A DNA stretch of 64,000 nt from Alphaproteobacteria bacterium (GCA_964291285.2 OZ219785.1:128001-192000), one strand, 5' to 3'; positions 9,442 to 46,203 are shown, counted from the stretch's first letter. Program-made: numbers and translations. The notes: generated from the letters alone by a model not told the origin.

Positions 9442-10218
9442 GGCCCTGTGGACGTATTGACTCAGGAGCGTGTTCAGGGATTCCCGTGCGAGGATTTGTC
9501 TGAATCATGAGGCGTCGGCGATTCGGGGGTTTCTTTGATGTCGACGAAGATGACGAATGGAGACTGGGAGGTTGCGCTGGAGGTTTTCCGGCTTTGCCTT
9601 CCGAGGCGGGGTGCGAAGGCGAAGGACGACCGTCTGTTTCTGGAGGCGCTGCACTTCTTTGCGGTTCACAACATCACCTGGCGGGCGCTGCCGGAGCGGT
9701 TCGGGCACTGGAATACGGTATGGCGGCGTTTTCACCGTCTGAGCCGTTCAGGGGTGTTCGAGGACTTTTTCGCCACGCTGGCGGATTTGAGCAGCACGGC
9801 GCACCTGGTTCAGATGTTCGATTCGACCGTGACCCGCGCGCATGTATCGGCGGCCGGCGCAAAAGGGGGCAGCAGGGTCAGGCGCTTGGACGCTCGCGGG
9901 GCGGTTTCAGCACCAAAATCCACCTGAAGACCGATTTCGACGGCCTGCCGATCGCCTTCGACCTGACCGGCGGCGAGGCAGCCGACAGTCCGCATTTCGA
10001 GACCCTGATGGACATCGGCCCCGATGTCCGGCCCCGCGCCATCGTCGCCGACAAGGGCTATGACAGCGCCGGAAACCGCCAACTCGCCCGGAAAAGAGGC
10101 GCCCTGACCGTCATTCCCTACCGGAAGAACATCAAAAACAGGCCAAAGCGCTTCGCAAGCGCGCTCTACAGAGGACGGGCGCGCATCGAACAGGCCGTCG
10201 GCAAGCTCAAACGTTTCA
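9442..10218 (+). mobile_element. IS5-family element, left part (interrupted by the integrative element)
   Basis: IRL GGCCCTGTGGACG; orfA 9535-9927, A4G5 slip site, orfB (GRSRGGFSTKIH, ADKGYD) breaks off at GKLKRF. Confidence 0.88.
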
Positions 10219-10391
10219 GTATTCCACCGTACGCCTGTCTGTTCCTGGCAACTGATGTCAAAGGAAATCGTTGTGTATCAATGAAGTATTGGTTTTCCCG
10301 GTGGACAAGGCGCGCCAGGACTACGCCCCGGTTGACTTTCATGTGTTGACCTGTATGGTGATATTCAGGGCTGTTTCGAAGGAATATCACT

Positions 10392-11660
10392 ATGTCAACA
10401 CAGACCGGCAAGCGCACTGCAAACCTCAAGCTCACCCTCAACAAGCGAAACGTCGAAGCCCTCAAGCCCCGGCACAAACCCTTCATCGCATGGGACGACC
10501 GCCTCACCGGATTCGGCATCCGCGTCCAGCCCTCGGGCATGCGCTCCTACATCGTCAACTACCGCGCCGGCGACGGCGGGCGCAAGGCCGCCAACCGGCG
10601 CCTCGTCCTCGGCCGCCACGGCCGCATCACCCCCGAACAGGCCAGGCGCCTCGCCCGGGAGACGCTGGGCCGCGTCGCCGCCGGCGAGGACCCCGCCGCC
10701 GGGCGCACCCGCGCCCGCGCCATGCCGACGGTGCGGGACGCCTTCGAGGACTATCTCGCCGCCGGGCCGGCGCGCAAGGACAGTACCGTTGCGGTATACC
10801 GCAGCACCGTCCACAAGGACCTCGGTGACTGGCTCGACCGCCCTCTCGACACCATCGGGCGCCGCGATGTCGAGCAGCGCTTCCGGCGCCTGAGCGAGAA
10901 TGCCGGGTGGGTGCAGGCCAACAATGCGATGAAGATGCTGCGCGCCCTCTACCGCCGCCAGTGCCTCGACCATGAGGGGCTGCACAATCCGGTGGACCAG
11001 TGGCGCGTCGCGGGCGGGCGGCCCCATCGCCCGAAACGGCGCATCATCCAGCCGCCGGCCGAGGTGCTGCCGCGCTGGCACCGCGGCATCGAGGCGGCGG
11101 TGCGTAACCCGGTCGCCCGCGACGCCTTGCACTTCGGCCTCTATACCGGCATGCGCCGGGCCGAAGTATTCGGCCTCGCATGGGCGCGGGTGGACAGGGC
11201 GGCGATGGTGTTCCGGGTCGAGGACACCAAGACCGGCGCGCCGTTGGCGCTTCCCGTCACCCGGCAGCTCGCGGCCATTCTCGAACGCCGCCTGGCCGAA
11301 CGCGACCGTGTCCCCGAGGCGAACCGGGGCTGGGTGTTCCCGTCCGAAACCAGCAGGTCCGGGCGTCTCACCGGCATGCAGCACATGAATGCGCGCATCG
11401 GCGAGGCGGGCGGCGCGAAATTCTGGTTCCATGCCCTGCGCAACTGCTTCATCACCGTCGCCGACCGCGACCTGATGCTGCCGGCCAGCCTGACCAAGCG
11501 GCTGGTCAACCACGCCCGGCCCCGGGACGTGACCGAGGGCTATGCCGCCGACTGGACCATGGAGCAACTCCGCGACGCCGCCCAGCGCATCTCTGACAGG
11601 ATCGACGCATTGATCCGCGAAGGCATTCCCGCGCCACCGGCCTTGCCGCCGACAGCATGA
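10392..11660 (+). CDS. Tyrosine integrase with arm-binding N-terminal domain
   Basis: WDDRLTGFGIRV arm domain; catalytic TGMRRAE, TKTG, HALR, VNH and TEGY all intact. Confidence 0.93.
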   Translation: MSTQTGKRTANLKLTLNKRNVEALKPRHKPFIAWDDRLTGFGIRVQPSGMRSYIVNYRAGDGGRKAANRRLVLGRHGRITPEQARRLARETLGRVAAGEDPAAGRTRARAMPTVRDAFEDYLAAGPARKDSTVAVYRSTVHKDLGDWLDRPLDTIGRRDVEQRFRRLSENAGWVQANNAMKMLRALYRRQCLDHEGLHNPVDQWRVAGGRPHRPKRRIIQPPAEVLPRWHRGIEAAVRNPVARDALHFGLYTGMRRAEVFGLAWARVDRAAMVFRVEDTKTGAPLALPVTRQLAAILERRLAERDRVPEANRGWVFPSETSRSGRLTGMQHMNARIGEAGGAKFWFHALRNCFITVADRDLMLPASLTKRLVNHARPRDVTEGYAADWTMEQLRDAAQRISDRIDALIREGIPAPPALPPTA

Positions 11661-11970
11661 CGCGTGGACCTTTTCCGGGCCCTCGACATGGGTGCGGGTG
11701 GTGATGCGCTTGCCGTGCTTCTCGATGGTGGCCTCTTGCAGGAGGTCGAGGTCGCGGATCAGGTCGTGCCATTCGATGCTGACGCCAGCGGCGGCGCATC
11801 GGTCGGCCAGTTCCTTCTGGAGGACCAGCGCGAGGAAGGAGCAGAAGACGTGGCCGCGGATCGCGGCGTTGCAGGAGTGGTAGATCGGTCGGGTGCGCAA
11901 CTGGGCCTTCGCCCGGCGGAACAGGTCTTCCACCGTGAGCAGCTCCCGGTAGCGGAGCACGGCGTTGAGC
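11661..11970 (-). pseudogene. IS1634-family transposase C-terminal remnant
   Basis: YRELLTVEDLFRRAK..LRTRPIYH...IRGHVFCSFLAL; no N-terminal part present. Confidence 0.7.
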
Positions 11971-12343
11971 GGCGTCATGCCGGCGTTGGTGCGCCGGCCT
12001 ATCTGGGGATATACCGGTGCGAGCCTCGCAAGGCGACGATGTAGAGGTCCATCGGGTCGCGGGTGCGGGAGACCGGGCGGCGGATGGCGTCGTGGCCGTG
12101 AGCCTCCCGCTCACCGGCGGCCTTGTCCGGTGCCGGCCAGCACGCCGTCGACCCGGGCGCGCGAGAGGCGGAACCGGCCCGAAGCTGTCCCCGTAGACAG
12201 CGCGTCGCGTCGACCCGGGCGCGCGAGACGCGGAACTCCCGCGCGATCGCCGCCGGCTGCGGCGCGACAATCAACTTGAGACTTCCGCGTCAATCAGGAT
12301 GAGACGAGGGAAGGCGGCGGCCCGGAACGGAGGGAGGGCGTAG

Positions 12344-14793
<2,450 letters not shown>

Positions 14794-14912
14794 CCCGAGG
14801 CCACCAGCTCGGCCGAACTGCCCTCACACTCACGGCCCGCGGGGATCGCCTCCGCGGGCCGCTTCATCTCCGGCCCACCGGACCGCCGCGACAATCAACC
14901 TAAATCCGGCAG

Positions 14913-16851
14913 GAGGCGTGTGCGCTGTTTGGAAGTGCTTTCTGAGCAAGGCATTGCGGAGGGTCTGGATTTTTCTTACCCCGTCAGGATGGCTGATTTC
15001 CGGGGTTTTTGCGGTTTGAAGGGAAAGGTTTTGTGGATTTCCACCCCATGGCCGTGCGCGGGCTGGTTTTCGGGCGCGTCGCGTTGAGGCGCGGGACTGA
15101 GTAGAAGGTGTCGCCATCGGGCCTGCGGCCCTTGTTCCATCCACCGGCGCTGGTTGGGAGAACGTGATGGCGACAGCGGAGAAGTTAGCCTTTTCGTGGT
15201 GGTCTGTGGAGGGCCTTGCGGACCTTGAGCGTCTGCGTGTGGTGCTCGACACGCTTCCCGACGAGAAGGTTGTGGCTGCGCTTGAGGCGGGTCGAGGCCG
15301 GGGTCGCAACGACTACCCGGTGCGGGCGATGTGGCGGGCTCTGATCGCGGGGATCGTGTTCCAGCATGCCTCGATGCAGTCGCTGCTGCGTGAGCTGGGC
15401 CGCAACCCGGCATTGCTTGAGATTTGCGGGTTCGAGGCGCTGCCCTTGCAGGGTGCGCCGGTGGTGGCGCTTTGCGCAGGGCGCGCGGTGAGGCGTCCGG
15501 CGCCGTTGCGCTCGACGGTGCCGGGCGCCTGGAACTTCTCGCGGTTCCTGGGGCGCGTGGTGCGCCTTGAGGACGAGCGCGGCCTTGTGTCGGGGATGAT
15601 CGGGCGTCTGCGCGCCTCGCTGTTCGAGGAGTTGCCGGACTTCGGTCGCCATCTCGGCTACGACGGCAAGGCGGTGGCGAGCCACTCGACGGGCCGGGTT
15701 GCCGGGGCCAGGGGGCAGACCTCGGACCCCGATGCGGACTGGGGCAGGCACGAGACGGGCGGGGTGAACGCGAAGACCGGCGCGGTGTGGAAGAAGGTGA
15801 AGTCGTGGTTCGGCTACGGGCTGCACCTGATCGCCGACACGGACCACGAGGTTCCTGTGGCCTTCGAGGTGACGCGGGCGTCGGCATCGGAACCCGGGGT
15901 GCTGTCCGGGATGCTGGAGGAGTTGTTCGCCGAGGCGCCGGAGATGGCCGGGCGCTGCGCCGATTTCAGCGCCGACCGCGGTCTCGACAACGCCCGCCTG
16001 AAGGCGCGGCTGTGGGACAGGTGGCATATCCGCCCGCTGATCGACACGCGCCTGATGTGGCGGGCGGAGAAGAAGGAGCCGGGCCATGACCCGGCCCGGC
16101 CGATCACGCGACCGCTGTTCCCCGGGCGCGCCGACGTCATCGTTCATGACGAACGCGGCCGGGTGTCCTGCGTGTGCCCGCAGACCGGCGAGGTCCGCGC
16201 CATGGCCTTCCAGGGGTTCGAGGCCGGGCGCGGCGTCTGCGGCACGCTCAAATACCGCTGCCCCGCAGCCGCCTTCGGCTTCGAGTGCAAGGGACGCCGG
16301 GCCTGCCATCGGGCGGGTGGGGTGAAGTCCGGCGAATACGGCCGCATCCTGCGCGTCGACCTCGACAGCCATGACCGGCGTATCTTCACGCCCACGCCCT
16401 GGGGCAGCCCGTCATGGCGGCGCGGATACAACCGGCGCACCGCCATGGAGCGGATCAACGCCCGCCTCGACCGCAGCTTCAACTTCGAGACCCATTACAT
16501 CCGCGGACGCGCGAAGATGAAGACCCGCATCGGGCTGGCCCTGGCGGTCATGATGGCCATGGCGCTTGCACAGGCCCGCGCCGGACGCGTCGCACGCATG
16601 CGCTCCTTGGTCGGCCCGGCGCCATACCTCGATACCGGCTGACCCCTCAGCCGACTGCCGACAACGCTGACCCAACCCGCCGGACCCCGGCATACGGACA
16701 AACGCGACCGAAGGCCGGCGATGCTGCCGGGCTGGGCCGCTCAAGTTCGAAAAGCAACCGCGGCGACCGCCTCGAACGCCGGAACAAACAACATCAACAC
16801 CCGGACCCAACGTCCCATCCGACCGGAAAAACCCCACAGCGCAAATTTCTC
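14913..16851 (+). mobile_element. DDE insertion sequence (IS1182/IS5-like; family uncertain)
   Basis: IRs GAGGCGTGTGCGCTGT / GAGAAATTTGCGCTGT; 5-bp TSD GGCAG (14908-14912, 16852-16856). Confidence 0.8.
15167..16642 (+). CDS. DDE transposase
   Basis: GRGRNDYP, YDGK, SDPDADWG, WFGYGLHL, ADRGLD, YNRRTAMERIN. Confidence 0.88.
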   Translation: MATAEKLAFSWWSVEGLADLERLRVVLDTLPDEKVVAALEAGRGRGRNDYPVRAMWRALIAGIVFQHASMQSLLRELGRNPALLEICGFEALPLQGAPVVALCAGRAVRRPAPLRSTVPGAWNFSRFLGRVVRLEDERGLVSGMIGRLRASLFEELPDFGRHLGYDGKAVASHSTGRVAGARGQTSDPDADWGRHETGGVNAKTGAVWKKVKSWFGYGLHLIADTDHEVPVAFEVTRASASEPGVLSGMLEELFAEAPEMAGRCADFSADRGLDNARLKARLWDRWHIRPLIDTRLMWRAEKKEPGHDPARPITRPLFPGRADVIVHDERGRVSCVCPQTGEVRAMAFQGFEAGRGVCGTLKYRCPAAAFGFECKGRRACHRAGGVKSGEYGRILRVDLDSHDRRIFTPTPWGSPSWRRGYNRRTAMERINARLDRSFNFETHYIRGRAKMKTRIGLALAVMMAMALAQARAGRVARMRSLVGPAPYLDTG

Positions 16852-16914
16852 GGCAGTTGACAGGCTTGATCGCTGTCTCGGGGTAGTGTGAACGGTCGGA
16901 TTTGGGCGTGGATT

Positions 16915-18480
16915 TCAGCCTGTCGGCGCGGTCCTGGGTGGCGGCAGCCAGGGTTGACGCCCCGGTTCGCGGCCATGGAGGTATTTCCTGAGCGCCTCGG
17001 CGAGGATCCGGCGCCAGCGATCCCCGGCGCTCAACTGCTCCGCAGTTTGCGTCAGCGACCGGAAGAAGCCGGCGATCCGGCGCAGCGCCGCCATCACCGT
17101 CTTGCGACGCCCGTGATGGGAGGTCACCGTCAGCCGGGTCTGGCCGGCGTGGTGGGTCTGGCGGGCAACCCCGTGCAGGAGCAGCGGCCGGCTGGTGATC
17201 GCCTCGCGGTGATGGTCGGGGTCGGCGAGGCGCACGAACAGGCTCCACCAGTTGTAGATGAGCGCGACCAGCCGGGCCATGTGCCGGCAGCGCGTCAGGT
17301 CGCGCGTGGTGAAGCCGCCCCAACCCCACTGGTTCTTCAACTCGTCGAAGCCGTTCTCCGCGTCCGCCCGGTCGCGGTAGAGCTGGGCCAGCGAGCGTAT
17401 CTCCAGGTCCAGCGAGGTCGCCAGCACCGCGAACTCCCACACCCCGGTGCCGGGCTGCGCCCCGGTCCAGAACAGCTCGCCCCGGGCCTTGTCGCCACGC
17501 GTCAGCGCCAGCATCGCAGGAAGCCGCCGGCGCAGCACCACAACCCGGCGCGTCCGGCTCCAGCCCTGCAGACGCAGATCGGCCCCGATCCCCGACCAAC
17601 CCTGGCCCGCATCCTCCCAGCCGTCCCGCGCCATCAGCCGCCCGGCAAGCCGGCGCGCCCCCTTCGTCAGGCGCAGCTTGAACAGATAGTCCGGACCCGC
17701 AGCCTCGCACGACGCCATGTTGGCCTCGCTGCCCCAGTCCTTGTCGCCCCGCACCAGACGCGGCCAGCGATCCCGCCCAAGACGGTCGAGCAACGCCCAC
17801 AAGGACGGCGCCGCGCGCCTCGAATGGTGATGGTTGCCCGGCGCCACCTCGACATCCAGAACAAGCCGCGTGCCCGCCATCAGGAACGCATGGCAGGCAT
17901 GCGAGGGGCGGCTCGGCTTCTTCGGGTTGTAGCTCACAACCGCTCCCTCCTGACGACCGTAAAGCGCCTTGATCGTCGTGTCGCAGTCCAGAACCCACGG
18001 CTCCCTCAGCAGCGGACGGACCACCTCGTCCAGATGGCCCTGAAGCCACGATGTGCCGACATCCGCACCGATCCGCTCCAGACCGCGCCGCACCGAATCC
18101 TCGCTCGCAACCTTGTCCATACCCAGCAGCGCAGGGTTCACTCCGTCGCCGCGCAGCGACGTGATGTGCGCATACCGCGATTGCCCCGCCAGAACCGACA
18201 GAAGAACCGTCCCCAGGACATCCCGCTTCGACGGCGCGTTCGGGCTCGTGTAGTGCAGCGGGCAGTCCGCAACCAAAGCGTCAAAGCGACCGCTTACCTT
18301 CAGGTATTCCGAGAAAAACGCCAGATGCCCCAGCGGCGTCACCGCCGCATCAGGGTCCCATTCCACATGAACCGCGCCGCCGAAGGTGTCCACCTTCACC
18401 GACGCTCGGGCGACATCCCGCACAGCGCCAGGATAATCACCCAAAGGGTGAGCCTCTTCGGCCCCTGAAAAGCCGCTCAT
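16915..18480 (-). CDS. IS1380-family transposase
   Basis: LDCDTT, YNPKKPSRPSH, VRGD, YRDRADAENGFDELKNQWG. Confidence 0.88.
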   Translation of the reverse strand: MSGFSGAEEAHPLGDYPGAVRDVARASVKVDTFGGAVHVEWDPDAAVTPLGHLAFFSEYLKVSGRFDALVADCPLHYTSPNAPSKRDVLGTVLLSVLAGQSRYAHITSLRGDGVNPALLGMDKVASEDSVRRGLERIGADVGTSWLQGHLDEVVRPLLREPWVLDCDTTIKALYGRQEGAVVSYNPKKPSRPSHACHAFLMAGTRLVLDVEVAPGNHHHSRRAAPSLWALLDRLGRDRWPRLVRGDKDWGSEANMASCEAAGPDYLFKLRLTKGARRLAGRLMARDGWEDAGQGWSGIGADLRLQGWSRTRRVVVLRRRLPAMLALTRGDKARGELFWTGAQPGTGVWEFAVLATSLDLEIRSLAQLYRDRADAENGFDELKNQWGWGGFTTRDLTRCRHMARLVALIYNWWSLFVRLADPDHHREAITSRPLLLHGVARQTHHAGQTRLTVTSHHGRRKTVMAALRRIAGFFRSLTQTAEQLSAGDRWRRILAEALRKYLHGREPGRQPWLPPPRTAPTG

Positions 18481-18690
18481 ACCCGCAGACTACAAGGGAT
18501 TCGGCAAGGCCAAGCCATCCTCAACTGCCGGATTTAGGATCAAAAATCCTCGGAACCTGTCGCGCCGCGACAATCAAAACCAAAAACCGCTTGCAATCCC
18601 CGCCGCGCGACACAATCCTCTCCCTCGTCGCTGCCGCCGGGAATCTCATCCTGATTGACGCGCGGCTCTCATCCAGATTGTCGCGCTATA

Positions 18691-18963
18691 GCCGGCCTGA
18701 GGCCGGCCTCGAAGGCGGCGAGGATCGGCCTTTTCCTGCCCCTGCGTCACCGGCCTGGCGCGCGCCCTTCCTCCGGATGTCTTGCCGGCCTGCCGCCCGC
18801 GCCTGCGGGCCTCGGCTGTCGCCGCTTCGACCGGCCGGTCGAGGTCCGCGTCGTCGAGATGGCGGAGCAAACGGTCGAGGCTCCCGCCGCGCTTTCCCGT
18901 CCCGCCACCCGAGCGCGCCGTCCTTCCTGCGCGTTGCCCCGTTTTCGTGGTCCTTCCTGTCAC
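18691..18963 (-). pseudogene. Small HTH protein interrupted by IS21 (continues at ~12257-12110)
   Basis: ILAAFEAGLRPA|AIAREFRVSRARV reads across the GCCGGC TSD; also frameshifted upstream. Confidence 0.55.
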
Positions 18964-19214
18964 CTACAACCGGTGAGCGCATCGCGTGTGCGCTGGTCGA
19001 TTGCAGCCCGAACGTGCCGGTGTGGCCATGGCCAGGGTGCTCTCCAGCTACCGGTCACCCGTGCCGCCGGCCCGCCGCCCGCCGTCGGGAACGCCGCCTC
19101 CCCCGCTCCGCGCCGGCAGGAGGGAAGGTCTGGCCGTGAGCGGGGCGGCGGTCGGCGCTTCGGAGAGCGGGGCGCTGCCGCCGGGTTCCACCACGGCACG
19201 ATGGAGACGGCAGC

Positions 19215-19547: not shown

Positions 19548-19634
19548 GCGCTTTCCCGAGGGACGTCCCGCCGGCCCGGCCGGGTCGGCCGGGCGTCCCT
19601 CTTCCGTTTTCCCCACGGCAAGGAGAATGCTCCC

Positions 19635-20657: not shown

Positions 20658-20847
20658 CATGCTGTCCCGGGCGGCGATGGCGGCGCTCGCCTGGCCGCGG
20701 TCCGCCGCGCCGTCCCTGTGTCGTGGAGAGGAGTAAAGCGCCTGCCGGGCGAGTGTCCGGCAGGGCGGAGGAGAGGACTCCCCGCCGATGCCGGATCGAT
20801 GTCCGGCACAGGTCGCCGGGCAGGACAACGGCAGAGGAGTTCCCGCC

Positions 20848-21054: not shown

Positions 21055-21158
21055 AGGAGGGCCTGAAGAGATTGAACGGGCAGGGGTTCGGGGGAGTGAC
21101 CCCGGCCCCGGTCGTTCGCAACCCATCGTCATCAACACGAACCTGAAGGAGTATCGCA

Positions 21159-37000: not shown

Positions 37001-37154
37001 CGACACCTTCGGCCGCTGGGCCTTCACCGAGTTCGCCGCTGTCCACGAGATCGAATCCGAGTTCCGCAGCTTGCTCGATGGCCTTCTGTCGCCTGCCAGC
37101 GGCATCGCTGCCACGATGCCGCTGGCCCAACACGCCGCCCCGATACACGGATAG
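34068..37154 (+). CDS. res: Type III restriction Res subunit (SF2 helicase + PD-(D/E)XK)
   Basis: LKLATGAGKT, NDEAHH, SATP, MLTEGWD, QAVGRALR, YIPDF...VEIKG. Confidence 0.92.
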   Translation: MDTSERFFDQPVLNSPYEVPARHWELDESGQPTDRLLERRREVSFLTPIPRPRKGKSAQQTLIFDEAAQRASTDGQQYELAQTINSVRNEVGRWRALPDPAQWRVTPETARLLRHWRHHRFNDIRPFFCQVEAVETAIWLTEVAPSYGNAGRRFLEHLEGASEEANPGLARLALKLATGAGKTTVMAMLIAWQTVNAVRRPNSRRFTRGFLVVTPGITIRDRLRVLQPNDPDSYYKSRELVPGDMLADLGRARIVITNFHAFKRRETMEVSKGGRALLQGRGPDLRSLESEGRMLQRVMPELMGMRNVLALNDEAHHCYREKPGEGDEGRFTGDDRKEAEKNREAARLWISGLEAVERKLGLARVIDLSATPFFLSGSGYAEGTLFPWTMSDFSLMDAIECGIVKLPRVPVADNIAGGDMPKFRNLWEHIRQDMPKKGRGKAASLDPLQIPVPLQTALHALYGHYEKTFELWREAGIEVPPCFIVVCNNTSTSKLIHDYIAGFRRENRDGSTVPENGRLELFRNFDEHGNPLAQPRTLLIDSEQLESGEALDRNFRTVAADEIDRFRREIVERTGDRKRAENLSDQELLREAMNTVGKEGRLGGATRCVVSVSMLTEGWDANTVTHVLGVRAFGTQLLCEQAVGRALRRQSYALSDEGVLPVEYADVLGIPFDFTAKPVVAPPQTPRKTVQVMAMRPERDACEIRFPRVAGYRIALPEERLQATFDADSTLELTPDLVGPSVTRNEGIIGEGVDLSLVHTRDLRHSTLLFHLTKRLLETKWRDPDGEPRLYLFGQLKRIARQWLDDHLVCKAGTCPAQLMYMALADMACERITRGIVARHVGERPVEAVLDPYNPAGSTAHVRFATSKQTLWKTDARRCHINYVVCDSDWEAEFCRVAEGHPRVRAYVKNHGLGLEVPYRQGAEARTYIPDFIVLVDDGRGADDPLQLVVEIKGRRGEDAKAKKAAMDTYWVPGVNALDTFGRWAFTEFAAVHEIESEFRSLLDGLLSPASGIAATMPLAQHAAPIHG

Positions 37155-37174
37155 GGCGCGGGACGGTTTTGAAG

Positions 37175-37651
37175 ATGAGCACCAGGCTCTACTCCGGGAC
37201 GGAGTTGGACGCGCTGCGGGCGATGCCCAAACGGATTGCCAACCCCCGCGCGCGCTGGCTGGAAAAGCCCAAGGGCCGACCCACCCACCGGCAATGCAGC
37301 TTTCAAGCCTCCGGAGACGGCGGCACCGAGGAGCGTTTTCTGATATATCAGCGGCAGAACCTGCAAGATGAACAGGACTTCTCCTGCGGAATCGCCCACC
37401 TGCCTCGCGGTGCGCCGCCGCTGACGCTGGCGCGCTACAATGGGCCGAGCCACGAGCACGGGGACATAGCCTACCGCCCGCACATTCACCGCGCTTCGGA
37501 GAAGACTATAGCGGCCGGCCTGAAGCCGGAGTCCGGTGCGGAAGAAACCGAACGGTTCGAGACGTTGGAAGGCGCGCTTGCCTGTCTGGTAAACGATTTC
37601 AATGTAACCGGCATCAGCGTTCAGCACGATAACGAACCGAGGTTCCTTTGA
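37175..37651 (+). CDS. Hypothetical protein with conserved-looking His motif
   Basis: LARYNGPSHEH...PHIH; stop overlaps the next start. Confidence 0.7.
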   Translation: MSTRLYSGTELDALRAMPKRIANPRARWLEKPKGRPTHRQCSFQASGDGGTEERFLIYQRQNLQDEQDFSCGIAHLPRGAPPLTLARYNGPSHEHGDIAYRPHIHRASEKTIAAGLKPESGAEETERFETLEGALACLVNDFNVTGISVQHDNEPRFL

Positions 37652-38439
37652 TGGCTATCGACCCGGCCTCCCTTCAAAATCTGCTGTGCGAGCGCCTTTG
37701 CGAAGAGGTGAGGATCGACCGTCGGCCCGACGGCGCGTTGATGCTCCGGGCGCATTTCGAATTTCCCGACGGCGACCGCTATCCGATCCACCTCTCGGCG
37801 GCGGCATCGGGAGGGCTTCGCCTGTCGGACCGCGGACACACGCTGATGCATCTCAGCTATGAGCATGAGATCGACTCCTTCATGGACGGGACCCGGGGCA
37901 TGCTCCTCGAACGCATCATGGGCGAAACCGGACTCGGCTGGGACGGGGACAGCGGGGCGCTTTGCCTCGATACGGCCCCCGAGAACCTGCCGCAGGCCCT
38001 GTTCGTCTTCGGGCAGGCGCTGACGAGGGTGTACGACCTGACCCTGCTTTCGCGCTCGAATGTCGGTTCCACTTTCTACGACGACCTTGCCGATCTCCTG
38101 TTCAGCTTTGTGGACGAGGTCAGGATCGAACAGAACTTCCAGCCGGATGTTCCGAACGCCGACGCCTACCCCGTGGATTATCGCATCGACGGGAAGGGCG
38201 ATGTTCCGCTTTTCGTCTATGGTGTGCCCAACCGCGACAAGGCGCGTCTGGCCACCATCATGCTGTCGCACTTCCACCGGCACGCGCTGCGCTTCGAATC
38301 CATCATCGTCTTCGAACGCCAGGCCGAGATTCCGAGGGCGGATCTCGCACGTCTGTCGGATGTCGGCGGCGACATGATCTCGTCGCTCGCGTCGCATGAG
38401 GATTTCAACCGAAAGCTCTTGCAGCGTGTCGCGGCATGA
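37651..38439 (+). CDS. DUF1828-like protein
   Basis: FEFPDGD, LRLSDRGHTL N-domain; C-terminal YPVDYRI nuclease-like fold. Confidence 0.7.
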   Translation: MAIDPASLQNLLCERLCEEVRIDRRPDGALMLRAHFEFPDGDRYPIHLSAAASGGLRLSDRGHTLMHLSYEHEIDSFMDGTRGMLLERIMGETGLGWDGDSGALCLDTAPENLPQALFVFGQALTRVYDLTLLSRSNVGSTFYDDLADLLFSFVDEVRIEQNFQPDVPNADAYPVDYRIDGKGDVPLFVYGVPNRDKARLATIMLSHFHRHALRFESIIVFERQAEIPRADLARLSDVGGDMISSLASHEDFNRKLLQRVAA

Positions 38440-38466
38440 CGCGCCGTAGCCGATGAGGGAATGGGA

Positions 38467-38682
38467 ATGAAGCTGCATTATTATCCCGAGACGGACAGCC
38501 TCCATGTCGAGTTCAAGGCCGGGCCGGGCACCGAGACGCGGGAGGTGGCGGACGGTCTGAATCTCGATCTTGACGGTGATGGCAGCGTCGTGGGCTTCGA
38601 CATCGACCGGGCCTCGCGGCGTGTCGGTCTCTCGACACTGGAGGCCGAGGCGCTGCCGCCGCGCACGACCAGGGTGGCCTGA
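38467..38682 (+). CDS. DUF2283 protein
   Basis: YYPETDSLHVEF, DLDGDGSVVGFDI. Confidence 0.8.
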   Translation: MKLHYYPETDSLHVEFKAGPGTETREVADGLNLDLDGDGSVVGFDIDRASRRVGLSTLEAEALPPRTTRVA

Positions 38683-38685
38683 TCC

Positions 38686-41415
38686 ATGGCGCGCGGGACG
38701 AAAACAGGGCCCAAATCCGTCGAAACCCTGACGCACGGCGAGGCGTCCAGGCGGAACATTCCGACGGCGGAATACCATCCCGTCCTGTCGGAGGAGGACA
38801 AGGCACCGGTCCGCGTGGCCTGGGAGCGCCGCAACCGCGATCTCGACCCGCAGCTCGTCTGGCGCGGCAAGGACGAGCAGGACGCCGCCGACCTCGTCGT
38901 CCAGGCGCCGCCACTCTATATCCAGGAGAAGGTGCACCCCAAGGCGCTGGTGGACGACCTGCTGCGGCAGACGAAGGAGCGCCGCGACGAGGGGGCAGAA
39001 GCGGCGCCGGACCTGTTCGCCGATTTCAACGGCCTGCCGAGCGAGGATGCGCGCACCGAGTTCTACCGCCACGACGCCAACTGGTCGAACCGCATGATCC
39101 TGGGCGACAGCCTGCAGGTCATGGCGAGTCTTGCCGAGCGCGAAGGCCTGCGCGGCAGGGTGCAGTGCATCTATATCGACCCGCCCTACGGCATCAGGTT
39201 CAACTCCAACTTCCAGTGGTCCACCACCAGCCGCGACGTGAAGGACGGCAACGCCGCCCACATCACCCGCGAACCGGAGCAGGTGAAGGCCTTCCGCGAC
39301 ACCTGGCGCGACGGCATCCACTCCTACCTCACCTATCTCCGCGACCGGCTGACCGTGGCGCGGGAACTGCTGACGGAGAGCGGCTCGGTCTTCGTGCAGA
39401 TCGGGGACGAGAATGTTCACCGTGTCCGGGCAGTGATGGATGAGGTGTTTGGTGAGGGGAACTTTATTAGCCTGATAAGCTATTCCACGACCACCGGTAG
39501 AACATCTTCGTTTGTTCCGAATGTTAACGATTACCTTCTTTGGTTTGCGAAGAATGTGAGCAGAACAAAATACAGGAAAGTGTTTGTTAATTCAATTAAC
39601 GGAGAGCAATCTGAGATAGAGCACGCAGGGACATTTGAAACTAGAGACCTGACGTCTCAGGGAGCGGCTAGTCAAAAACAACCGTTCTTTTTTCAAAATG
39701 AGGTATTTTTCCCAGCTGTTGCACGCCATTGGAGTAATGATCATATTACAGGCATGCCCCGACTTGCTAAATCTGGAAGAATAGTTAAGGTTAGCAAGAC
39801 ACAAATTCGTGCAAAAATTTACAAAAATGAGCAGACGGCTACTTTACTTACCAATCGATGGCTAGATACTCAATTTGGTGCATTTGCAAGGGATAAAATT
39901 TATGTTGTGCAAACCGCTACACGGGTCATTCAACGCTGCATCCTGATGACCACCGACCCCGGCGATCTGGTGCTGGACCCGACCTGCGGCTCCGGCACTG
40001 CGGCCCATGTCGCCGAGCAGTGGGGGCGGCGGTGGGTCGCCATCGACACTTCCCGCGTCGCCCTCGCGCTGGCCCGCGCCCGCATCATGGGCGCGCGCTA
40101 TCCCTGGTATCTCCTCGCCGACAGCCCGGAAGGGCGGCGCAAGGAAGCGGAGATCGCCCGCCAGTCGCCCCCGGAGACGCCGACGGGCAGCGACATCCGC
40201 CAGGGCTTCGTCTATGAGCGGGTGCCGCACATCACCCTCAAATCCATCGCCAACAACGCCGAAATCGACGTGATCTGGGAGAAGTGGCAGCAGACCCTGG
40301 AGCCGCTCCGCGCCCGGCTCAACGCGGCCCTCGGCAGGCAGTGGGAAGAATGGGAAATCCCGCGCACTGCGGGCGAGAGCTGGCCTAGCGCTGCCGCCGC
40401 CGCACATGCCGCATGGTGGGAGGCGCGCATCGCCCGGCAGAAGGAAATCGACGCCGCCATCGCCGCCAGGGCCGAGCATGAATATCTCTACGACAAACCC
40501 TATGTCGACAATTCCCGCATCCGCGTCGCCGGCCCCTTCACCGTCGAGAGCCTGGCGCCGCACCGGATGCTGGCGGTGGACGAGAATGACGAACCCTTCA
40601 CCGGGCTTTCCGACCGGAAGCTCGGCTATGGCGAGGCGCCGAACTTCACCGACATGATCCTGGAGAATCTCAGGACGGCCGGCGTCCAGCAGGCGCATAA
40701 GGAGGACCGCATCGCCTTCGCCGCGCTCACGCCCTGGCCCGGCCGCTATGTCTGCGCCGAGGGCCGCTATGTGGAAGGCGGCGGCGAGAACGGCGCCACA
40801 CGGCGCGCCGGCGTCTTCATCGGCCCCGAATTCGGCACCGTGGCGCGGCCGGACCTTGTCGCCGCCGCGCGCGAGGCCGCCGACGCCGGGTTCGATGTGC
40901 TGGTTGCCTGCGCCTTCAGCTACGACGCCCATGCCGCCGAGTTCGAGAAGCTCGGGCGCATCCCGGTGCTCAAGGCGCGCATGAACGCTGACCTGCACAT
41001 GGCCGGCGATCTCAAGAACACCGGCAAGGGCAACCTCTTTGTCATCTTCGGCGAGCCCGATATCGATATCCTGGACGACGGGGACGAGAATATCCGGGTG
41101 CGCATCAACGGCGTCGATGTCTTCCACCCCAACACCGGCGAGGTGCGCAGCGACGGCCCCGACGGCATCGCCTGCTGGTTCGTCGATACCGACTACAACG
41201 AGGAGAGCTTCTTCGTCCGCCACGCCTATTTCCTCGGCGCCAACGATCCCTACAAGGCGCTCAAGACAACGCTCAAGGCCGAGATCGACCCCGACGCCTG
41301 GGCCACCCTCAACAGCGACACCTCCCGCCCGTTCCCCAAACCCGCCTCCGGCCGCATCGCCGTCAAGGTCATCAACCACCTCGGCGACGAGGCGATGAAG
41401 GTTTTCCGGGTGTGA
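38686..41415 (+). CDS. mod: Type III Mod adenine methyltransferase
   Basis: IYIDPPYG motif IV, VLDPTCGSGT motif I, variable TRD between them. Confidence 0.93.
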   Translation: MARGTKTGPKSVETLTHGEASRRNIPTAEYHPVLSEEDKAPVRVAWERRNRDLDPQLVWRGKDEQDAADLVVQAPPLYIQEKVHPKALVDDLLRQTKERRDEGAEAAPDLFADFNGLPSEDARTEFYRHDANWSNRMILGDSLQVMASLAEREGLRGRVQCIYIDPPYGIRFNSNFQWSTTSRDVKDGNAAHITREPEQVKAFRDTWRDGIHSYLTYLRDRLTVARELLTESGSVFVQIGDENVHRVRAVMDEVFGEGNFISLISYSTTTGRTSSFVPNVNDYLLWFAKNVSRTKYRKVFVNSINGEQSEIEHAGTFETRDLTSQGAASQKQPFFFQNEVFFPAVARHWSNDHITGMPRLAKSGRIVKVSKTQIRAKIYKNEQTATLLTNRWLDTQFGAFARDKIYVVQTATRVIQRCILMTTDPGDLVLDPTCGSGTAAHVAEQWGRRWVAIDTSRVALALARARIMGARYPWYLLADSPEGRRKEAEIARQSPPETPTGSDIRQGFVYERVPHITLKSIANNAEIDVIWEKWQQTLEPLRARLNAALGRQWEEWEIPRTAGESWPSAAAAAHAAWWEARIARQKEIDAAIAARAEHEYLYDKPYVDNSRIRVAGPFTVESLAPHRMLAVDENDEPFTGLSDRKLGYGEAPNFTDMILENLRTAGVQQAHKEDRIAFAALTPWPGRYVCAEGRYVEGGGENGATRRAGVFIGPEFGTVARPDLVAAAREAADAGFDVLVACAFSYDAHAAEFEKLGRIPVLKARMNADLHMAGDLKNTGKGNLFVIFGEPDIDILDDGDENIRVRINGVDVFHPNTGEVRSDGPDGIACWFVDTDYNEESFFVRHAYFLGANDPYKALKTTLKAEIDPDAWATLNSDTSRPFPKPASGRIAVKVINHLGDEAMKVFRV

Positions 41416-41472: not shown

Positions 41473-42987
41473 ATGACTGACCGAACCGTGGACGAGTCCC
41501 TTGAACTCGAGGTGAACGATTTCGGGCCGATCGTTGAGGCGAAAGTAGACCTGCGCCCGCTGACGGTGTTCGTGGGCCCGAGCAATACGGGTAAATCTTA
41601 TCTGGCGATTCTCATATACGGACTGCATCGAGTGTTCGGCGGCGACTCATTTCTCGCGAGAAGAAAATTCCATAGAATATCCCGGTTTTTATTGGGACAA
41701 GGTGGTCGGGAATTGTCGGAAAGGAATGTTGAAGCTCTGCTTGATCTGGCAAATTTTTTCTCTGAATATCAAAAATCTAAGAACGACGAAAGTATTGCAT
41801 TGTCTCCATTAGCCGGCGAAGCTCTTCGCTCTGTATTCGGTGAGCTGGCAGACGAATTTTCCGATGAAATCGGTCGATGTTTCGGAGTCGGAGAAGCTTA
41901 TTCACTGATCCGACGAGGCCCAAAAAGGGAATCGCGCATTGTAATGAGGAGAAGCATATTCGGTCAATCTGATCTTGCAGAACATACAATTTCCCTCGCC
42001 CGGAATTCTGAATTCAAAGCTATGGTTCCTGATAAAATTCCAATCCCGATTGATTTCGAGAATCGGGGAAATATGAGCCGATTTTTGCGTGCGTTAACAT
42101 ATCATCTTGAAAAAGAAACAACTCGTGAATCTCGTCGCGAACTTGCGGCTTTGGAGATTTTGCCATTAGTCAGCAACCTAGTACTTTCATCGTTGATCGG
42201 TCCCTTGCGCTTGCCAGCATTTTATCTGCCCGCCGACCGGACCGGCATCATGCACGCCCACAGCGTGGTGGTTAGCGCTCTGATTGCAAGTGCGCCTGCT
42301 GCGGGGTTGCGGCCTGCCACCGGCACACCGATGCTGTCCGGGGTGCTGGCGGATTTCCTTGGACAGTTGATCGAAACTGCCCAATCTGCGCGTCTCCATC
42401 AAAAACAGAAACAGGATCTTGGCAAGGGTATCGAGAACGCCATTCTGGACGGTTCGGTTCGCATCGACCGCTTGGCTCCTGTCGATTATCCACGCTTTGC
42501 CTACCGGCCGCGCGGCTGGAAGGCCGACCTGCCATTAGCCAACGCATCATCCATGGTTTCGGAACTTGCGCCCGTGGTATTGTATCTTCGCCATGTGATC
42601 GAGCCGGGCAATATCCTGATCATTGAGGAACCGGAATCGCACCTGCACCCGGCGATGCAGGTCGTGTTCACCCGCCAACTTGCTGCGCTCATTGAGGTGG
42701 GAGTCCGGGTGATCGTCACCACCCACAGCGAATGGCTGCTGGAAGAGCTGGCGAATATTGTGCGGCGGTCGAAGCTCTCCAAGGCAGACCGCGGCGATAA
42801 CATCGCACTGCGTCCCGACCAAGTGGGTGTATGGCTGTTCAAGCCGAAGACAAGGCCCAAGGGTTCGGTGGTCAAGGAGATACGCTTGGAAGACTCCGGC
42901 CTGTATCCCTCCGGCTTCGATGATGTTGCAAGCGCCCTGCACAATGATTGGGCCGACACGGAAAGTCGCATTGAGGCCGGCTCGTGA
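41473..42987 (+). CDS. ABC-type ATPase (AAA_15/AAA_21-like)
   Basis: GPSNTGKS, SSMVSE signature, IIEEPESHLHP, VTTHS. Confidence 0.88.
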   Translation: MTDRTVDESLELEVNDFGPIVEAKVDLRPLTVFVGPSNTGKSYLAILIYGLHRVFGGDSFLARRKFHRISRFLLGQGGRELSERNVEALLDLANFFSEYQKSKNDESIALSPLAGEALRSVFGELADEFSDEIGRCFGVGEAYSLIRRGPKRESRIVMRRSIFGQSDLAEHTISLARNSEFKAMVPDKIPIPIDFENRGNMSRFLRALTYHLEKETTRESRRELAALEILPLVSNLVLSSLIGPLRLPAFYLPADRTGIMHAHSVVVSALIASAPAAGLRPATGTPMLSGVLADFLGQLIETAQSARLHQKQKQDLGKGIENAILDGSVRIDRLAPVDYPRFAYRPRGWKADLPLANASSMVSELAPVVLYLRHVIEPGNILIIEEPESHLHPAMQVVFTRQLAALIEVGVRVIVTTHSEWLLEELANIVRRSKLSKADRGDNIALRPDQVGVWLFKPKTRPKGSVVKEIRLEDSGLYPSGFDDVASALHNDWADTESRIEAGS

Positions 42988-43445
42988 CGGCGCTATTGGA
43001 CGACATCCGCAGGAAGATCGGGGAAAGTTGTTTTGTAAAGAAGTTGAGCAAGGACGGATGCCGGGTTGTGATGTCTGACGCGCCCACTCCCAGACTGGTC
43101 GTCGATTTCGATAAACCTGAATCGCCGCTAGCGGCGGATGAAATGCGCTGCGATTACCTATTGGTTGCCGAAGGTAAAGATACGCAGGGGTGGGTTATGG
43201 TTCTTGAGTTGAAGCGGGGACAGTTGCACGCGGATCAGGTCGCCAGCCAATTGCAGGCAGGTGCGTCTGCTGCCGAGAAGCTCATGTCTTCAGGCCATGC
43301 AATCCGGTTTCGCCCGATCGCCGTCTCTGGCAGAACGTCCATACATGAACGAAAACAGCTGAGAAAAAAAATCAGGTTCCACAAACACAGGGAACCCATC
43401 GTAAGGATGTCGTGTGGAGCCAAGCTGACAACAGCACTTCGCTAA
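42984..43445 (+). CDS. Small putative PD-(D/E)XK-like protein coupled to the ATPase
   Basis: GTGA overlap; RCDYLL...VLELKRG...QL. Confidence 0.6.
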   Translation: MTALLDDIRRKIGESCFVKKLSKDGCRVVMSDAPTPRLVVDFDKPESPLAADEMRCDYLLVAEGKDTQGWVMVLELKRGQLHADQVASQLQAGASAAEKLMSSGHAIRFRPIAVSGRTSIHERKQLRKKIRFHKHREPIVRMSCGAKLTTALR

Positions 43446-43499
43446 TGAAGCATATAGGAGACTATCGATGTCGCTCTACCGCTTGCAGCATCAATACGG

Positions 43500-43816
43500 T
43501 GTCAGCGGCCGCTCGCCTCTTACCTGTTATCTCCCGAAAACCATCTTCGATCCGACATTTCGTGGTCGGACGGGAAGTTGCCATGCGGCTTCAGACGATC
43601 CGCGAATCCTTCGGCAACGCGGAAGAGATTGATGAATCGCCCGACCGAGCACCTTCGAAGCGCATCGAGGGTCTGTACCCCGGATACCCAAAACCGCTCC
43701 TGGGGACTCTGGGCGCTCTCGAAATCGGTCTGCCGGGAATTCGTGCGGCGTGTCCGCATTTCTCCAGCTGGGTAAGCCGTCTGGAGGATCTGCCGGCGAC
43801 CCTTGGAGCGGAGTAA
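43500..43816 (+). pseudogene. DUF4276-like C-terminal remnant
   Basis: EEIDESPDRAPSKRI..YPK..GLPGIRAACPHFSSW; no coherent N-terminus. Left boundary approximate. Confidence 0.55.
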
Positions 43817-43827
43817 TTTCGATCCCG

Positions 43828-45915
43828 ATGGAATTCCGCATCGCCGATACCTTCACAGCGAGCCTCGCCAAGTTGACCGGGGACGAGCAGAAGGCCGCGA
43901 AGACCACGGCCTTCGACCTGCAGGTGGACCCGTCGGCGCCGGGCCTCTCGTTTCACCGGATCGACCGCGCCAGGGACCGAAACTTCTGGTCGGTCCGGGT
44001 CAGCCGGGACATCCGGCTGATCGTGCATCGCACCGCATCGAGCGTCATGCTCGTCCATGTCGGCCGTCACGATGCCGCGTATCGCTGGGCGGAGCGGCGG
44101 CGGATCGAGCGGCATCCCAGGACCGGCGCGGCCCAGATCGTCGAGATTCGCGAGACCGTGCGCGAGATCGAGCTTGCGCGCTCCGTCGTCGCCGAAGCGC
44201 CGGACGGCGCGCGGTCCGCGACCAGGCCCGCGCTCTTCGCCGACATGGCCGACGATCAACTGTTGGGATACGGCGTACCCGAAGCCTGGCTGGACGACGT
44301 GCGCAGCGCGGACGAGGACACTCTGCTCGACCTCGCCGATCACCTGCCGGCGGAGGCGGCCGAAGCGCTGCTGGAGATTGCCACCGGCGGCACGCCGGAA
44401 CGGCCGGTACATGCGGCCGCCGACACCGACCCTTTCGCCCACCCGGATGCGCAGCGCCGTTTCCGGCTGGTGGAGAATATCGCCGAACTGGAGCGCGCTC
44501 TCGAATATCCGTGGGAGAAGTGGACAGTCTTTCTGCATCCGGCGCAACGCCGCATCGTCGAAAACGAATACGGCGGCCCGGCCCGCGTCTCCGGTTCGGC
44601 CGGCACCGGGAAAACCATCGTCGCCCTTCACCGCGCCGTTCATCTGGCCGGGGCCTACCCGGATGCCCGCATTCTTCTCGCCACCTTTTCCGAGACGCTC
44701 GCGGACGCGCTTCGCGTGAGGCTGCGGTGCCTGGTGCACAACCGGCCGAGTATCGCGGAGCGCTTGGAAGTGCAGTCGATGGGCGGCATCGGCCGGCACC
44801 TCCACGAAGCCAATTTCGGCCCGCCTCGCCTCGCTGACGACGAAGAGATACGCCTCCTCGTCGCCCAGGCCGCCGCGGGAAAGGAGCACGGATTAAGCCC
44901 GCATTTCCTGTGGACCGAGTGGAGCCGGGTGGTGGATGCATGGCAACTGGAAAGCTGGGAAGACTATCGGGACGTGATGCGGCTCGGCCGCAAGACCCGT
45001 CTCGCGGAGGCCCGGCGCAAGGCGCTCTGGCCGATTTTCTCGGCGGTGCGTCAGAGCCTCGACGAGCGCGGGCTGCTCACCGAACCCCGCATGTTCCGGC
45101 GCCTGGAACGGCACTTCGCCGGGGCAGCGCATTCGCCGTTCGAGTTCTGCGTGATCGACGAGGCCCAGGACATCGACGTTGCGGCGCTGCGTTTCCTCTC
45201 CGCCATCGGCGGCGGTCGACGCAACAGCCTCTTCTTCGCCGGCGATCTCGGCCAGCGCATTTTCCGTACCCCCTTCTCCTGGCGAGCGCTGGGAGTGGAC
45301 GTGCGCGGACGTTCCCACACGCTCCGTGTCAATTACCGGACATCCCATCAGATTCGCCGGCAGGCCGATCTCCTGCTGCCGTCCGAGATCGCCGACGTGG
45401 ACGGGATCACGGAAGAGCGGGCCAGCACGGTCTCCGCGTTCAACGGGCCGGAACCGCGCATCAGGGTTTTCGGATCGCCGGACGAAGAAGCTGCGGCCGT
45501 CGCCGACTGGCTTGCCGCGCGACGGCAGGACGGCTGCGTATCTCGCGAAATGGCCGTGTTCGTCAGATCCGGGGCGGAGGTGCCGCGGGCACGGGAAGCC
45601 GTCCGGCTCGCGGGCTTGCCGACCGTGGAATTGAGCTGGCGCTCGGACGGCACACCCGACGGGGTCACGGTGGGAACGATGCACCTCGCCAAGGGCCTGG
45701 AGTTCCGCACGGTAGCCGTCGTCGCTTGTGACGATGACATTCTGCCTCTCCAGTCGCGCATCGAGAGCGTCGCCGACCCGGCCGATCTGGAGGACGCCTA
45801 CGGCACGGAACGGCACCTGCTCTATGTCGCCTGCACTCGCGCCCGCGACCACCTCTTGGTGACAGGCGTCAGCCCGGCGTCCGAGTTCCTCGACGATCTG
45901 CGGTGCAACACATGA
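43828..45915 (+). CDS. UvrD-like SF1 helicase with RelE/ParE-like N-terminal domain
   Basis: FRIADTF...PGLSFHRI...WSVRVSRDIRLIV; GSAGTGKT, IDEAQD, GDLGQRIF, NYRT, TMHLAKGLEF, LYVACTRARD. Confidence 0.88.
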   Translation: MEFRIADTFTASLAKLTGDEQKAAKTTAFDLQVDPSAPGLSFHRIDRARDRNFWSVRVSRDIRLIVHRTASSVMLVHVGRHDAAYRWAERRRIERHPRTGAAQIVEIRETVREIELARSVVAEAPDGARSATRPALFADMADDQLLGYGVPEAWLDDVRSADEDTLLDLADHLPAEAAEALLEIATGGTPERPVHAAADTDPFAHPDAQRRFRLVENIAELERALEYPWEKWTVFLHPAQRRIVENEYGGPARVSGSAGTGKTIVALHRAVHLAGAYPDARILLATFSETLADALRVRLRCLVHNRPSIAERLEVQSMGGIGRHLHEANFGPPRLADDEEIRLLVAQAAAGKEHGLSPHFLWTEWSRVVDAWQLESWEDYRDVMRLGRKTRLAEARRKALWPIFSAVRQSLDERGLLTEPRMFRRLERHFAGAAHSPFEFCVIDEAQDIDVAALRFLSAIGGGRRNSLFFAGDLGQRIFRTPFSWRALGVDVRGRSHTLRVNYRTSHQIRRQADLLLPSEIADVDGITEERASTVSAFNGPEPRIRVFGSPDEEAAAVADWLAARRQDGCVSREMAVFVRSGAEVPRAREAVRLAGLPTVELSWRSDGTPDGVTVGTMHLAKGLEFRTVAVVACDDDILPLQSRIESVADPADLEDAYGTERHLLYVACTRARDHLLVTGVSPASEFLDDLRCNT

Positions 45916-46093
45916 CGCCGCCTCTCGGAGCGGCAGCAGAGGCGGTGCGCGGTCCTCACGGCTCGCTTGCCGCGACGATCCGGCTGTCGTGCTGATATAG
46001 TGTTGATACGTTTCTGGAAATATCCTGTGTTCTCACTGTAATGGATTGTAATTGCTGTATTAATTCAGACCATTATCCGTCATGCCATTCAAA

Positions 46094-46203
46094 TCAAACG
46101 CTTCAAACGCATCGCCCTGCGCTGCGAAAAGACCGCCACAAACTTCAGCTCCTTCGTCGCACTCGCCGCTGCCTTCATCTTGATCAAATCCGTCCACAGG
46201 ACC
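46094..46203 (+). mobile_element. IS5-family element, right part
   Basis: KRFKRIALRCEKTATNFSSFVALAA...VHRT*; IRR reverse-complements to GGTCCTGTGGACG, matching the IRL at 9442; followed by TA. Confidence 0.88.

Follow-up and report, generated by a model that had tools for sequence, protein, structure and literature searches.

A Cas9-carrying mobilizable element that probably docks, through its tyrosine integrase, at one site of a multicopy insertion sequence

tRNA genes are the typical targets of P4-type integrases, the enzymes of genomic islands and integrative mobilizable elements (IMEs) that combine an Arm-DNA-bind_3 (DUF4102) domain with a Phage_integrase domain, and IMEs are also known to nest in integrative and conjugative elements of streptococci. 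Passages of PMC10111431 describe an integrase clade of phage-inducible chromosomal islands (PICIs) that repeatedly targets prophage late genes and disrupts them without supplying a replacement sequence, and one sentence there places the PICI EcCIDi14 in an IS110 transposase gene. Apart from that sentence, the literature searched, which left subscription journals and supplements outside, yielded no tyrosine integrase dedicated to a site in an insertion sequence (IS), and term searches of PMC10083194 and PMC5704250 returned none either. We describe here a 35.9-kb element, with Cas9, a type III restriction-modification system and a relaxase, that lies inside an IS5-family IS on a 64,000-bp stretch of DNA (the window) from an assembly labelled Alphaproteobacteria bacterium. 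The window corresponds to C1:128001-192000 of this source genome (G000; 6.1 Mb in five contigs), and all positions given without a contig name are window positions. Like P4-type island and IME integrases, the integrase of the element has the same domain pair, conserved catalytic residues and a place at the element edge, from which its gene reads inward. The reading that best fits the data, and one that we consider likely, is site-specific integration dedicated to this IS, by a specificity recently derived from the targeting of ssb genes.

The target IS is 875 bp long and is present in the window as two TA-flanked parts of 777 and 98 bp (Table 1), which are separated by an insert of 35,887 bp, one core counted in. 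Its left end at 9442 reads GGCCCTGTGGACG with a TA immediately before it, and its right end at 46203 reads GGTCCTGTGGACG in reverse complement and is followed by TA. The transposase frame is broken after GKLKRF at 10218, beyond which the sequence is unrelated, and both junctions have the core TCAAACG(T/C)TTCA, 12 bp with one mismatch, of which the 7 bp TCAAACG are perfect. Joined together, the 777 and 98 bp are collinear with the 17 IS copies of this genome that are both full-length and uninterrupted. Pfam searches of the IS gave PF01609 (DDE_Tnp_1) on 9507-10349 and PF13340 (DUF4096) on 9535-9927; the DUF4096 OrfA and the DDE_Tnp_1 OrfB lie in overlapping frames, which therefore assigns the split IS to the IS5 family, and the arrangement would fit a programmed frameshift. 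The inverted repeats measure 13 bp with one mismatch, and TA flanks were found at all copies. An earlier note on this DNA, made from its sequence alone, had described the split IS5 transposase, the shared core, the restorable 875-bp IS, its inverted repeats and its TA flanks, and all of these were confirmed at both junctions. Its account of an intact tyrosine integrase at the left edge, of AT-rich inner ends and of a Cas9 and restriction-modification cargo was likewise borne out: both integrase domains and the catalytic residues were recovered, the inner ends are poorer in GC than the element, and Cas9, Cas1, Cas2, a CRISPR array and type III Res and Mod were all found.

Left and right junction contexts were collected from the whole assembly by anchoring on the IS sequence just outside the junctions. 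The data showed 25 left contexts, 18 uninterrupted and seven attL, and 27 right contexts, 18 uninterrupted and nine attR. All interrupted IS copies are broken at the identical nucleotide and continue into the same inner sequence. A tblastn search of the genome detected seven integrase genes with 100% amino acid identity, each about 190 bp from an attL, and the integrase together with the first 2 kb is 99.5-100% identical in all seven copies. The 12-bp core occurs 28 times in the 6.1-Mb genome, and all 28 occurrences are inside the target IS or one diverged relative, a confinement that is therefore beyond chance. Besides the window copy, three attL/attR pairs are in correct orientation, 34, 39 and 59 kb apart, and three attL and five attR are orphans. 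With seven attL, nine attR, 18 empty sites and an identical integrase at each attL, the proposal of the earlier note that a multicopy IS serves as attB was supported.

The mismatch in the core indicates where the recombination took place. It is a T in all seven attL and a C in all nine attR and all 18 uninterrupted sites (the 17 full-length copies and an eighteenth, 5'-truncated site), and TCAAACG is exactly the 7 bp of identity to the left of it, bounded by a C/A difference. Since T is always in attL and C always in attR and empty sites, strand exchange is placed left of the mismatch, most probably within TCAAACG (10207-10213), so that the T at 10214 would come from attP and the C from attB. 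A length of 7 bp is the size of a tyrosine-recombinase overlap region. The window has two other IS5-family copies, which at their equivalent sites (8671-8706 and 60153-60188) encode the related peptides KHFRRI and KQFRRI in different DNA, and both are unoccupied. The same motif in different DNA is thus empty, and the target is therefore the DNA site of one IS lineage and not a protein motif of the family; the suggestion that a conserved K-x-F-(R/K)-RIA coding stretch of IS5 elements in general is recognized had to be given up.

The integrase contains PF13356 (Arm-DNA-bind_3; E 2.6e-15, residues 16-107) and PF00589 (Phage_integrase; E 1.2e-11, residues 244-355). The motifs TGMRR, EDTKTG, FHALR, NHA and EGY, which we take to hold the catalytic R, K, HxxR, H and Y, respectively, are conserved across an alignment of 13 sequences, the integrase and 12 homologues. 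Compared with a GC content of 66.2% for the element, 10219-10391 has 48.6% and the 110 bp that precede the right core have 37.3%. In the left inner arm, the block GTTGAC...GTGTTGAC is conserved in nine of nine aligned homologous elements, and is a possible arm-type site and/or int promoter. In the mechanism that we propose, the P4-type integrase would recombine the attP of the element with one defined site in the 3'-terminal part of the 875-bp IS's transposase gene, and the N-terminal arm domain of the enzyme would bind arm regions formed by the AT-rich inner ends with their conserved GTTGAC-type repeats. Each integration would remove the last 32 codons of one transposase copy, and after excision the element would be transferred through its TrwC relaxase by a helper conjugation system.

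The relatives of the integrase in other genomes suggest where this specificity came from. Homologues were taken from 40 related genomes (six of the 40 matched at E <= 1e-60), a species-representative genome collection (11 loci) and metagenome contigs (14 loci, three of them with a usable upstream flank). The 5' end of ssb is abutted by six homologues of 77-86% identity (L002, L003, L021, L030, L035 and L036). In one genome (G007), the ssb at the integrase is followed by homologues of orf21711 and YspA, and it is therefore part of the backbone module of a sister element and not the host's own ssb locus. An integrase of 61% identity (L037) lies in mid-ssb, and one homologue (L010) is placed after another integrase gene. 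Five homologues of 61-63% identity abut what can be read from the sequence as tRNA-Met-like 3' halves; ARAGORN returned no complete tRNA beside them, and these flanks were not called tRNA genes as such. No target was assigned for 11 of the 25 readable flanks (L004, L012, L020, L022, L023, L024, L025, L026, L027, L028 and L029).

In a maximum-likelihood tree of 24 integrases, the G000 enzyme is sister to the ssb-targeting L002 (86% identity, support 95/91), and both fall within a fully supported clade of 12 rows, six of which are users of the ssb 5' end. The aligned junction cores are similar between IS-targeting and ssb-targeting elements. These results suggest that, within the genus, an integrase lineage living on other mobile DNA recently exchanged ssb for the IS as its target; its specificity would descend from ancestors that targeted the 5' end of ssb in sister-element backbones. 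Specificity for the IS is a young trait that has to date been met in the G000 integrase only. Two of the foreign loci are observations of their own. In G011 (L033/L034, C1:4343335-4346397), a 72-codon ssb fragment lies between two diverging integrases, one of 82% identity at its 5' end and one of 58% in mid-gene, as though one ssb gene had received two different elements. The closest foreign integrase (L028, OZ220465.1:2100661-2107653; 93% over residues 1-330) is truncated, has the same inner left arm and adjoins the end of a large gene, outside any IS or ssb; it may represent a third target or a remnant.

The docking site itself reaches beyond this genome. Related IS copies with 86-91% nucleotide identity over most or all of the 777-bp query were detected in other species of the genus (G010, G014, G015 and G011); G016 gave a short match, and 16 of 37 family genomes, G000 included, gave some match. 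The sequence AAGCTCAAACGCTTCAA is kept at the IS sites of G010, G011, G014 and G016 and differs at two positions in G015, and the sites of all five representative genomes are unoccupied. A search of PLSDB plasmids returned no close relative of the IS: in its 16 records the long matches were 72-76% identical, and the one match at 85% spanned just 68 bp.

Whether the junctions record repeated integration or the copying of a single event was judged from the divergence on either side of them. If one ancestral integration had been followed by multiplication of the whole IS-element-IS unit, by transposase acting in trans or by duplication and homologous recombination, the repeated junctions would be identical by descent. 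The outer inverted repeats and TA flanks are indeed intact at every copy, the 17 full-length uninterrupted copies could provide the transposase, IS-mediated rearrangements are abundant in the genome, and the near-identity of the seven integrase regions would fit as well. Among the nine attR arms, six share 96-100% identity with one another, so that those copies could have multiplied by another route. Whole-unit copying predicts even divergence across the junction, and the jump observed exactly at the junction counts against it. The 107 bp formed by the core end and the IS right part are 100% identical in all nine attR copies, whereas the inner arms fall into three groups in which only about the last 130 bp are common to all nine; compared with the window copy, they are 90-95% identical in the last 100 bp and 69-99% in the next 100 bp. 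Likewise, the TrwC versions of sibling elements have 65-79% amino acid identity to the window copy, yet the identity of the IS halves, also to uninterrupted copies, is 100% or no lower than 99.5%. The seven attL-linked IS halves show four haplotypes at six variable sites, two of which, GACGAT and TGCGTT, also occur among uninterrupted IS copies. The cargo differs too: the genes for Cas9, Cas1, Res, Mod, the ATPase and the UvrD-like protein are present in the window copy only, and the siblings carry instead an AIPR protein with a RecD2-like helicase, subtilases, a NACHT-like protein and a PLD-SNF2 protein. Near-identical IS halves with differing cargo, right arms and IS haplotypes point to several integrations, in which diverged members of one element family probably entered near-identical IS copies independently. 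Copying also leaves unexplained why the original core resembles that of ssb-targeting relatives. We therefore regard copying from a single event as unlikely for the set as a whole, although some of the copies may have arisen in this way. Movement of the whole composite by transposase in trans, which the earlier note had raised, is not required to account for the copies.

Two further explanations concern the site and the assembly. The earlier note had itself allowed for a one-off insertion at a secondary (pseudo-attB) site, with the real attB at an ssb or tRNA gene elsewhere, and the closest foreign integrases at ssb 5' ends, the more distant ones abutting tRNA-Met-like halves and the likeness of the IS core to the ssb-type core would agree with this. 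All seven integrase copies and all 16 junctions are nevertheless at the same position of the IS, no junction of this type was found outside the IS in the assembly, and none of the about 30 ssb-like copies found with the SSB of the element adjoins any of the seven integrases, so that the proposal of a one-off event is excluded as an account of these copies and is, in our judgement, highly improbable overall. Mis-joined repeats could in principle make an element appear inside an IS, for the genome is rich in near-identical repeats (about 25 copies of the target IS, nine of the neighbouring IS and many of three others). Such an artefact would hardly give the identical break nucleotide 16 times, a T/C pattern that fits recombination chemistry and outer flanks that differ between copies. 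Short-read data bear on this as well: three runs under the same organism label were aligned on 9300-11700 as Logan contigs, from which rare variants are dropped, and independently assembled contigs of two runs, possibly of the same strain, span the attL junction and reach at least 31 letters to either side of it. Among the loose ends listed, only one is at 10218, and it is the continuation of uninterrupted IS copies; none is a circle junction in the three runs, a result with no bearing either way, as contigs cannot show rare circles. An assembly artefact is in our view the least probable of these explanations, with hardly any weight left to it.

Several observations weigh against the preferred reading, dedicated integration at the IS site, and have to be set beside the evidence for it. 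Of the 25 foreign homologues whose flank can be read (58-93% identity), none is in an IS, and neither the target IS nor its transposase stands beside the integrase at any of 41 foreign loci; the IS specificity rests on one genome. The earlier note had named insertion of homologous integrases at unrelated or tRNA sites as the finding that would speak against it, and with none of 25 in an IS this is literally what the mapping gave; the claim for the present integrase stands, as a young specificity. Gene conversion among the about 25 IS copies could in principle homogenize the IS halves. The orphan junctions show that the genome is heavily rearranged, and some attL/attR pairings are uncertain. 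As the left neighbour of the split IS is another IS, continuity of the outer flanks is not demonstrable at the window locus. No attP of an excised circle and no tandem junction was found in the assembly, and no excisionase was recognized by Pfam and PHROGs among the small conserved open reading frames (ORFs). GTGTTGAY is not enriched in the window (five matches against 2.24 expected, with five reached in six of 100 shuffles); it was set aside as an arm-site motif, and its conservation in the alignment is kept as a hint only. Activity, directionality control and mobilization of the element are presumed from its sequence rather than observed. A metagenome scan for the left inner arm gave no matches, and four metagenome runs contained only 5-11% of the sequence words.

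The content of the element was established by Pfam, PADLOC and repeat searches (Table 1). The Pfam search identified Cas1, Cas2 and a Cas9 with HNH_4, RuvC_III and Cas9_a domains, and the locus belongs to type II-C, with cas9, cas1 and cas2, an adjacent array, a candidate tracrRNA anti-repeat and neither csn2 nor cas4. The CRISPR spacers had no match in the rest of the genome and thus no self-targeting, and an Rfam search of 9000-47000 gave no match. The UvrD-like helicase (43750-45915) resembles GajB/NERD-UvrD, and its pairing with the AAA_15 ATPase resembles known defence ATPase/helicase pairs. In the 29 element ORFs scanned with Pfam, neither a type IV secretion system (T4SS) nor a coupling protein was detected, and small or unscanned ORFs could hide parts of such an apparatus. 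An integrase and a TrwC relaxase with no T4SS or coupling protein found therefore fit an IME. As far as can be tested, the 35.9-kb insert appears to be one, having its own integration module (integrase, attL and attR), its own relaxase and no conjugation apparatus found. Other TrwC-like genes in the genome are 43-46% identical to that of the element. The three secondary IS insertions (12258-18542) are not present in sibling copies, and the ORF at 12452-13957 of the IS21-family IS had no Pfam match. The backbone module has 95-99% nucleotide identity to six sibling integrase-linked copies. It was also seen in about 20 places in the genome (e.g. C2:227265-231472, C4:256599-260707 and C5:327247-332989) as against seven integrase copies; the element family in this genome is therefore far larger, and its further members have different integration modules.

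Table 1 Features of the split IS and of the element inserted in it (window positions)
Feature	Position	Strand	Remarks
TA flank (target duplication)	9440-9441		left of IS; common to abutting neighbour IS
IS left part, 777 bp	9442-10218	+	left inverted repeat, OrfA with DUF4096, frameshifted OrfB with DDE_Tnp_1
attL core TCAAACGTTTCA	10207-10218	+	
Left inner arm of attP (P' arm)	10219-10391	+	block GTTGAC...GTGTTGAC
Tyrosine integrase, 422 aa	10392-11660	+	Arm-DNA-bind_3 + Phage_integrase; left element edge, inward reading
IS21-family IS inside element	12258-14898	+	istB 13954-14793; absent from sibling elements
Second secondary IS	14913-16851	+	DDE_Tnp_1/DUF772 transposase 15164-16642; multicopy in genome
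Third secondary IS	16851-18542	-	DDE_Tnp_1_4 transposase 16915-18480; multicopy in genome
Conserved backbone module	18691-23749	+	orf19215, zinc-ribbon protein 19635-20657, orf20788, SSB 21159-21587, orf21711, YspA/SLOG 22110-23300
Candidate tracrRNA anti-repeat	24811-24846		26/36 positions complementary to CRISPR repeat; just upstream of cas9
cas9, cas1, cas2	24885-28025, 28038-28973, within 28880-29329	+	type II-C layout; single copy in genome
CRISPR array	29380-30006		10 repeats of 36 nt, 9 spacers of 29-30 nt
TrwC-type relaxase-helicase (MOBF-like)	30044-33028	-	PF08751, E 2.3e-83, with AAA_30 helicase
Type III restriction-modification	34068-41415	+	Res 34068-37154, DUF1828 protein 37648-38439, Mod 38686-41415
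Defence-like trio	41473-45915	+	AAA_15 ATPase (PD-T4-4_A-like) 41473-42987, small ORF 42984-43445, UvrD-like helicase 43750-45915
Right inner arm of attP (P arm), AT-rich	45960-46093	+	
attR core TCAAACGCTTCA	46094-46105	+	C derived from IS
IS right part, 98 bp	46106-46203	+	KRIALRCEKTA...VHRT, right inverted repeat
TA flank	46204-46205		right of IS

Immediately left of the split IS lies, in place of host DNA, the end of a second IS5-family IS (8587-9439). This IS of about 853 bp is present in nine copies at 99-100% identity, has the TA at 9440-41 in common with the split IS, and truncates the Dcm-type methylase gene (7920-8864) of an EcoRII-Vsr-Dcm cluster. Ends of the same IS type also abut the split-IS copies at C3:109607 (attL) and C3:1427651 (attR), and these three cases suggest insertion beside IS ends. 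The 27 bp left of the split IS had been considered as the continuation of a truncated secreted-protein gene, a candidate that was dropped because they are the end of the other IS. On the right, a gene start with a signal-peptide-like N-terminus of 48 aa (46204-46347, minus strand) is cut by the IS end, and its continuation was sought on the other side of the IS and was not found. Further out, the left flank (367-8586) is a mosaic with a HipA-like kinase (367-1635), an EcoRII-C endonuclease (2189-2791), an IS21-type pair (3836-6276) and Vsr (7443-7916), and the right flank (46481-61804) has two porins, an IS4-like transposase (51872-53671), a Slam-type protein (55301-56650), a 309-aa integrase (58305-59234) and an IS5-type remnant (60066-60617).

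Elsewhere in the genome, the outer flanks differ among all split copies except one attR pair: the attR-bearing IS halves at C3:2199431 and C2:1420487 have identical outer flanks across the 30 bp displayed. The identical flank pair and the orphan att sites suggest that element copies were duplicated, or rearranged with one another, across contigs. A head-to-tail tandem pair of the IS with TA alone between its members was found at C2:371644-373297 of G000, the second member being occupied (attL C2:373278), and tandem pairs of the related IS occur three times in G010, e.g. at C2:2735748-2737401. Adjacent pairs of tyrosine-recombinase genes, 27-30% identical to the integrase of the element, recur on all contigs (e.g. 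C4:515708-517977, C3:1478791-1481176 and C2:1395679-1397948) and look like multicopy recombinase-pair or recombinase-trio elements.

A broader scenario can be offered only tentatively, and we place it short of probable. A defence-island lineage would have moved its docking from the ssb of sister elements to a dispensable, multicopy IS already spread in the genus; cargo variants, Cas9 among them, would then pile up in one cell, recombination between attL and attR would reshuffle replicons, and the outer IS ends would offer a second, transposase-driven route. If this were true, attB would be available in dozens of copies per genome, on several replicons. Already on the main reading, the choice of target matters. 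Integrases are usually tied to single-copy conserved host genes, whereas a selfish, dispensable multicopy target removes the competition for one site and lets many related elements, differing in their defence cargo, live side by side in one genome, here with seven integrase copies and 16 junctions. Every such integration would disable one transposase gene copy, and the repeated att sites and backbones would be substrates for large rearrangements. The pair of 86%-identical integrases with different targets, the IS here and ssb in a sister species, and related cores could serve as a natural system for the study of specificity shifts in tyrosine integrases. The element also illustrates in concrete form how mobilizable islands could spread a complete Cas9 system together with other defence systems.

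Compared with described systems, the locus combines familiar parts in an unusual place. As in P4-type islands, a short identity block is present at both junctions, the arms are AT-rich, and distant homologues (61-63%) abut tRNA-Met-like halves; the difference is the target, an internal site of an IS transposase gene in about 27 copies, whose reading frame is not restored. By its domains and residues the integrase is an ordinary P4-type enzyme, and only the usual target, a tRNA, tmRNA or housekeeping gene, is missing. With composite transposons the locus shares outward-facing IS inverted repeats at both ends of a large cargo and TA flanks. Here one IS is split at a 12-bp core into parts that sum to one 875-bp copy, in place of two complete IS copies, and no evidence was found that the IS-element-IS unit transposes. 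The element resembles IMEs in its variable cargo and in pairing an integrase with a TrwC relaxase while neither a T4SS nor a coupling protein was found. It differs in its docking site; the passages of the IME review PMC5704250 do not mention an IS as a specific attB. The closest parallel is with the PICIs in the passages of PMC10111431, where an integrase clade likewise hits genes of other mobile elements and does not restore them. Those are phage satellites in prophage late genes of enterobacteria, whereas this is a relaxase-bearing IME in an alphaproteobacterium-like genome. Set against the sentence on EcCIDi14 in PMC10111431, the IS is used here many times in one genome, at 16 junctions, and sister integrases target the ssb of sibling elements.

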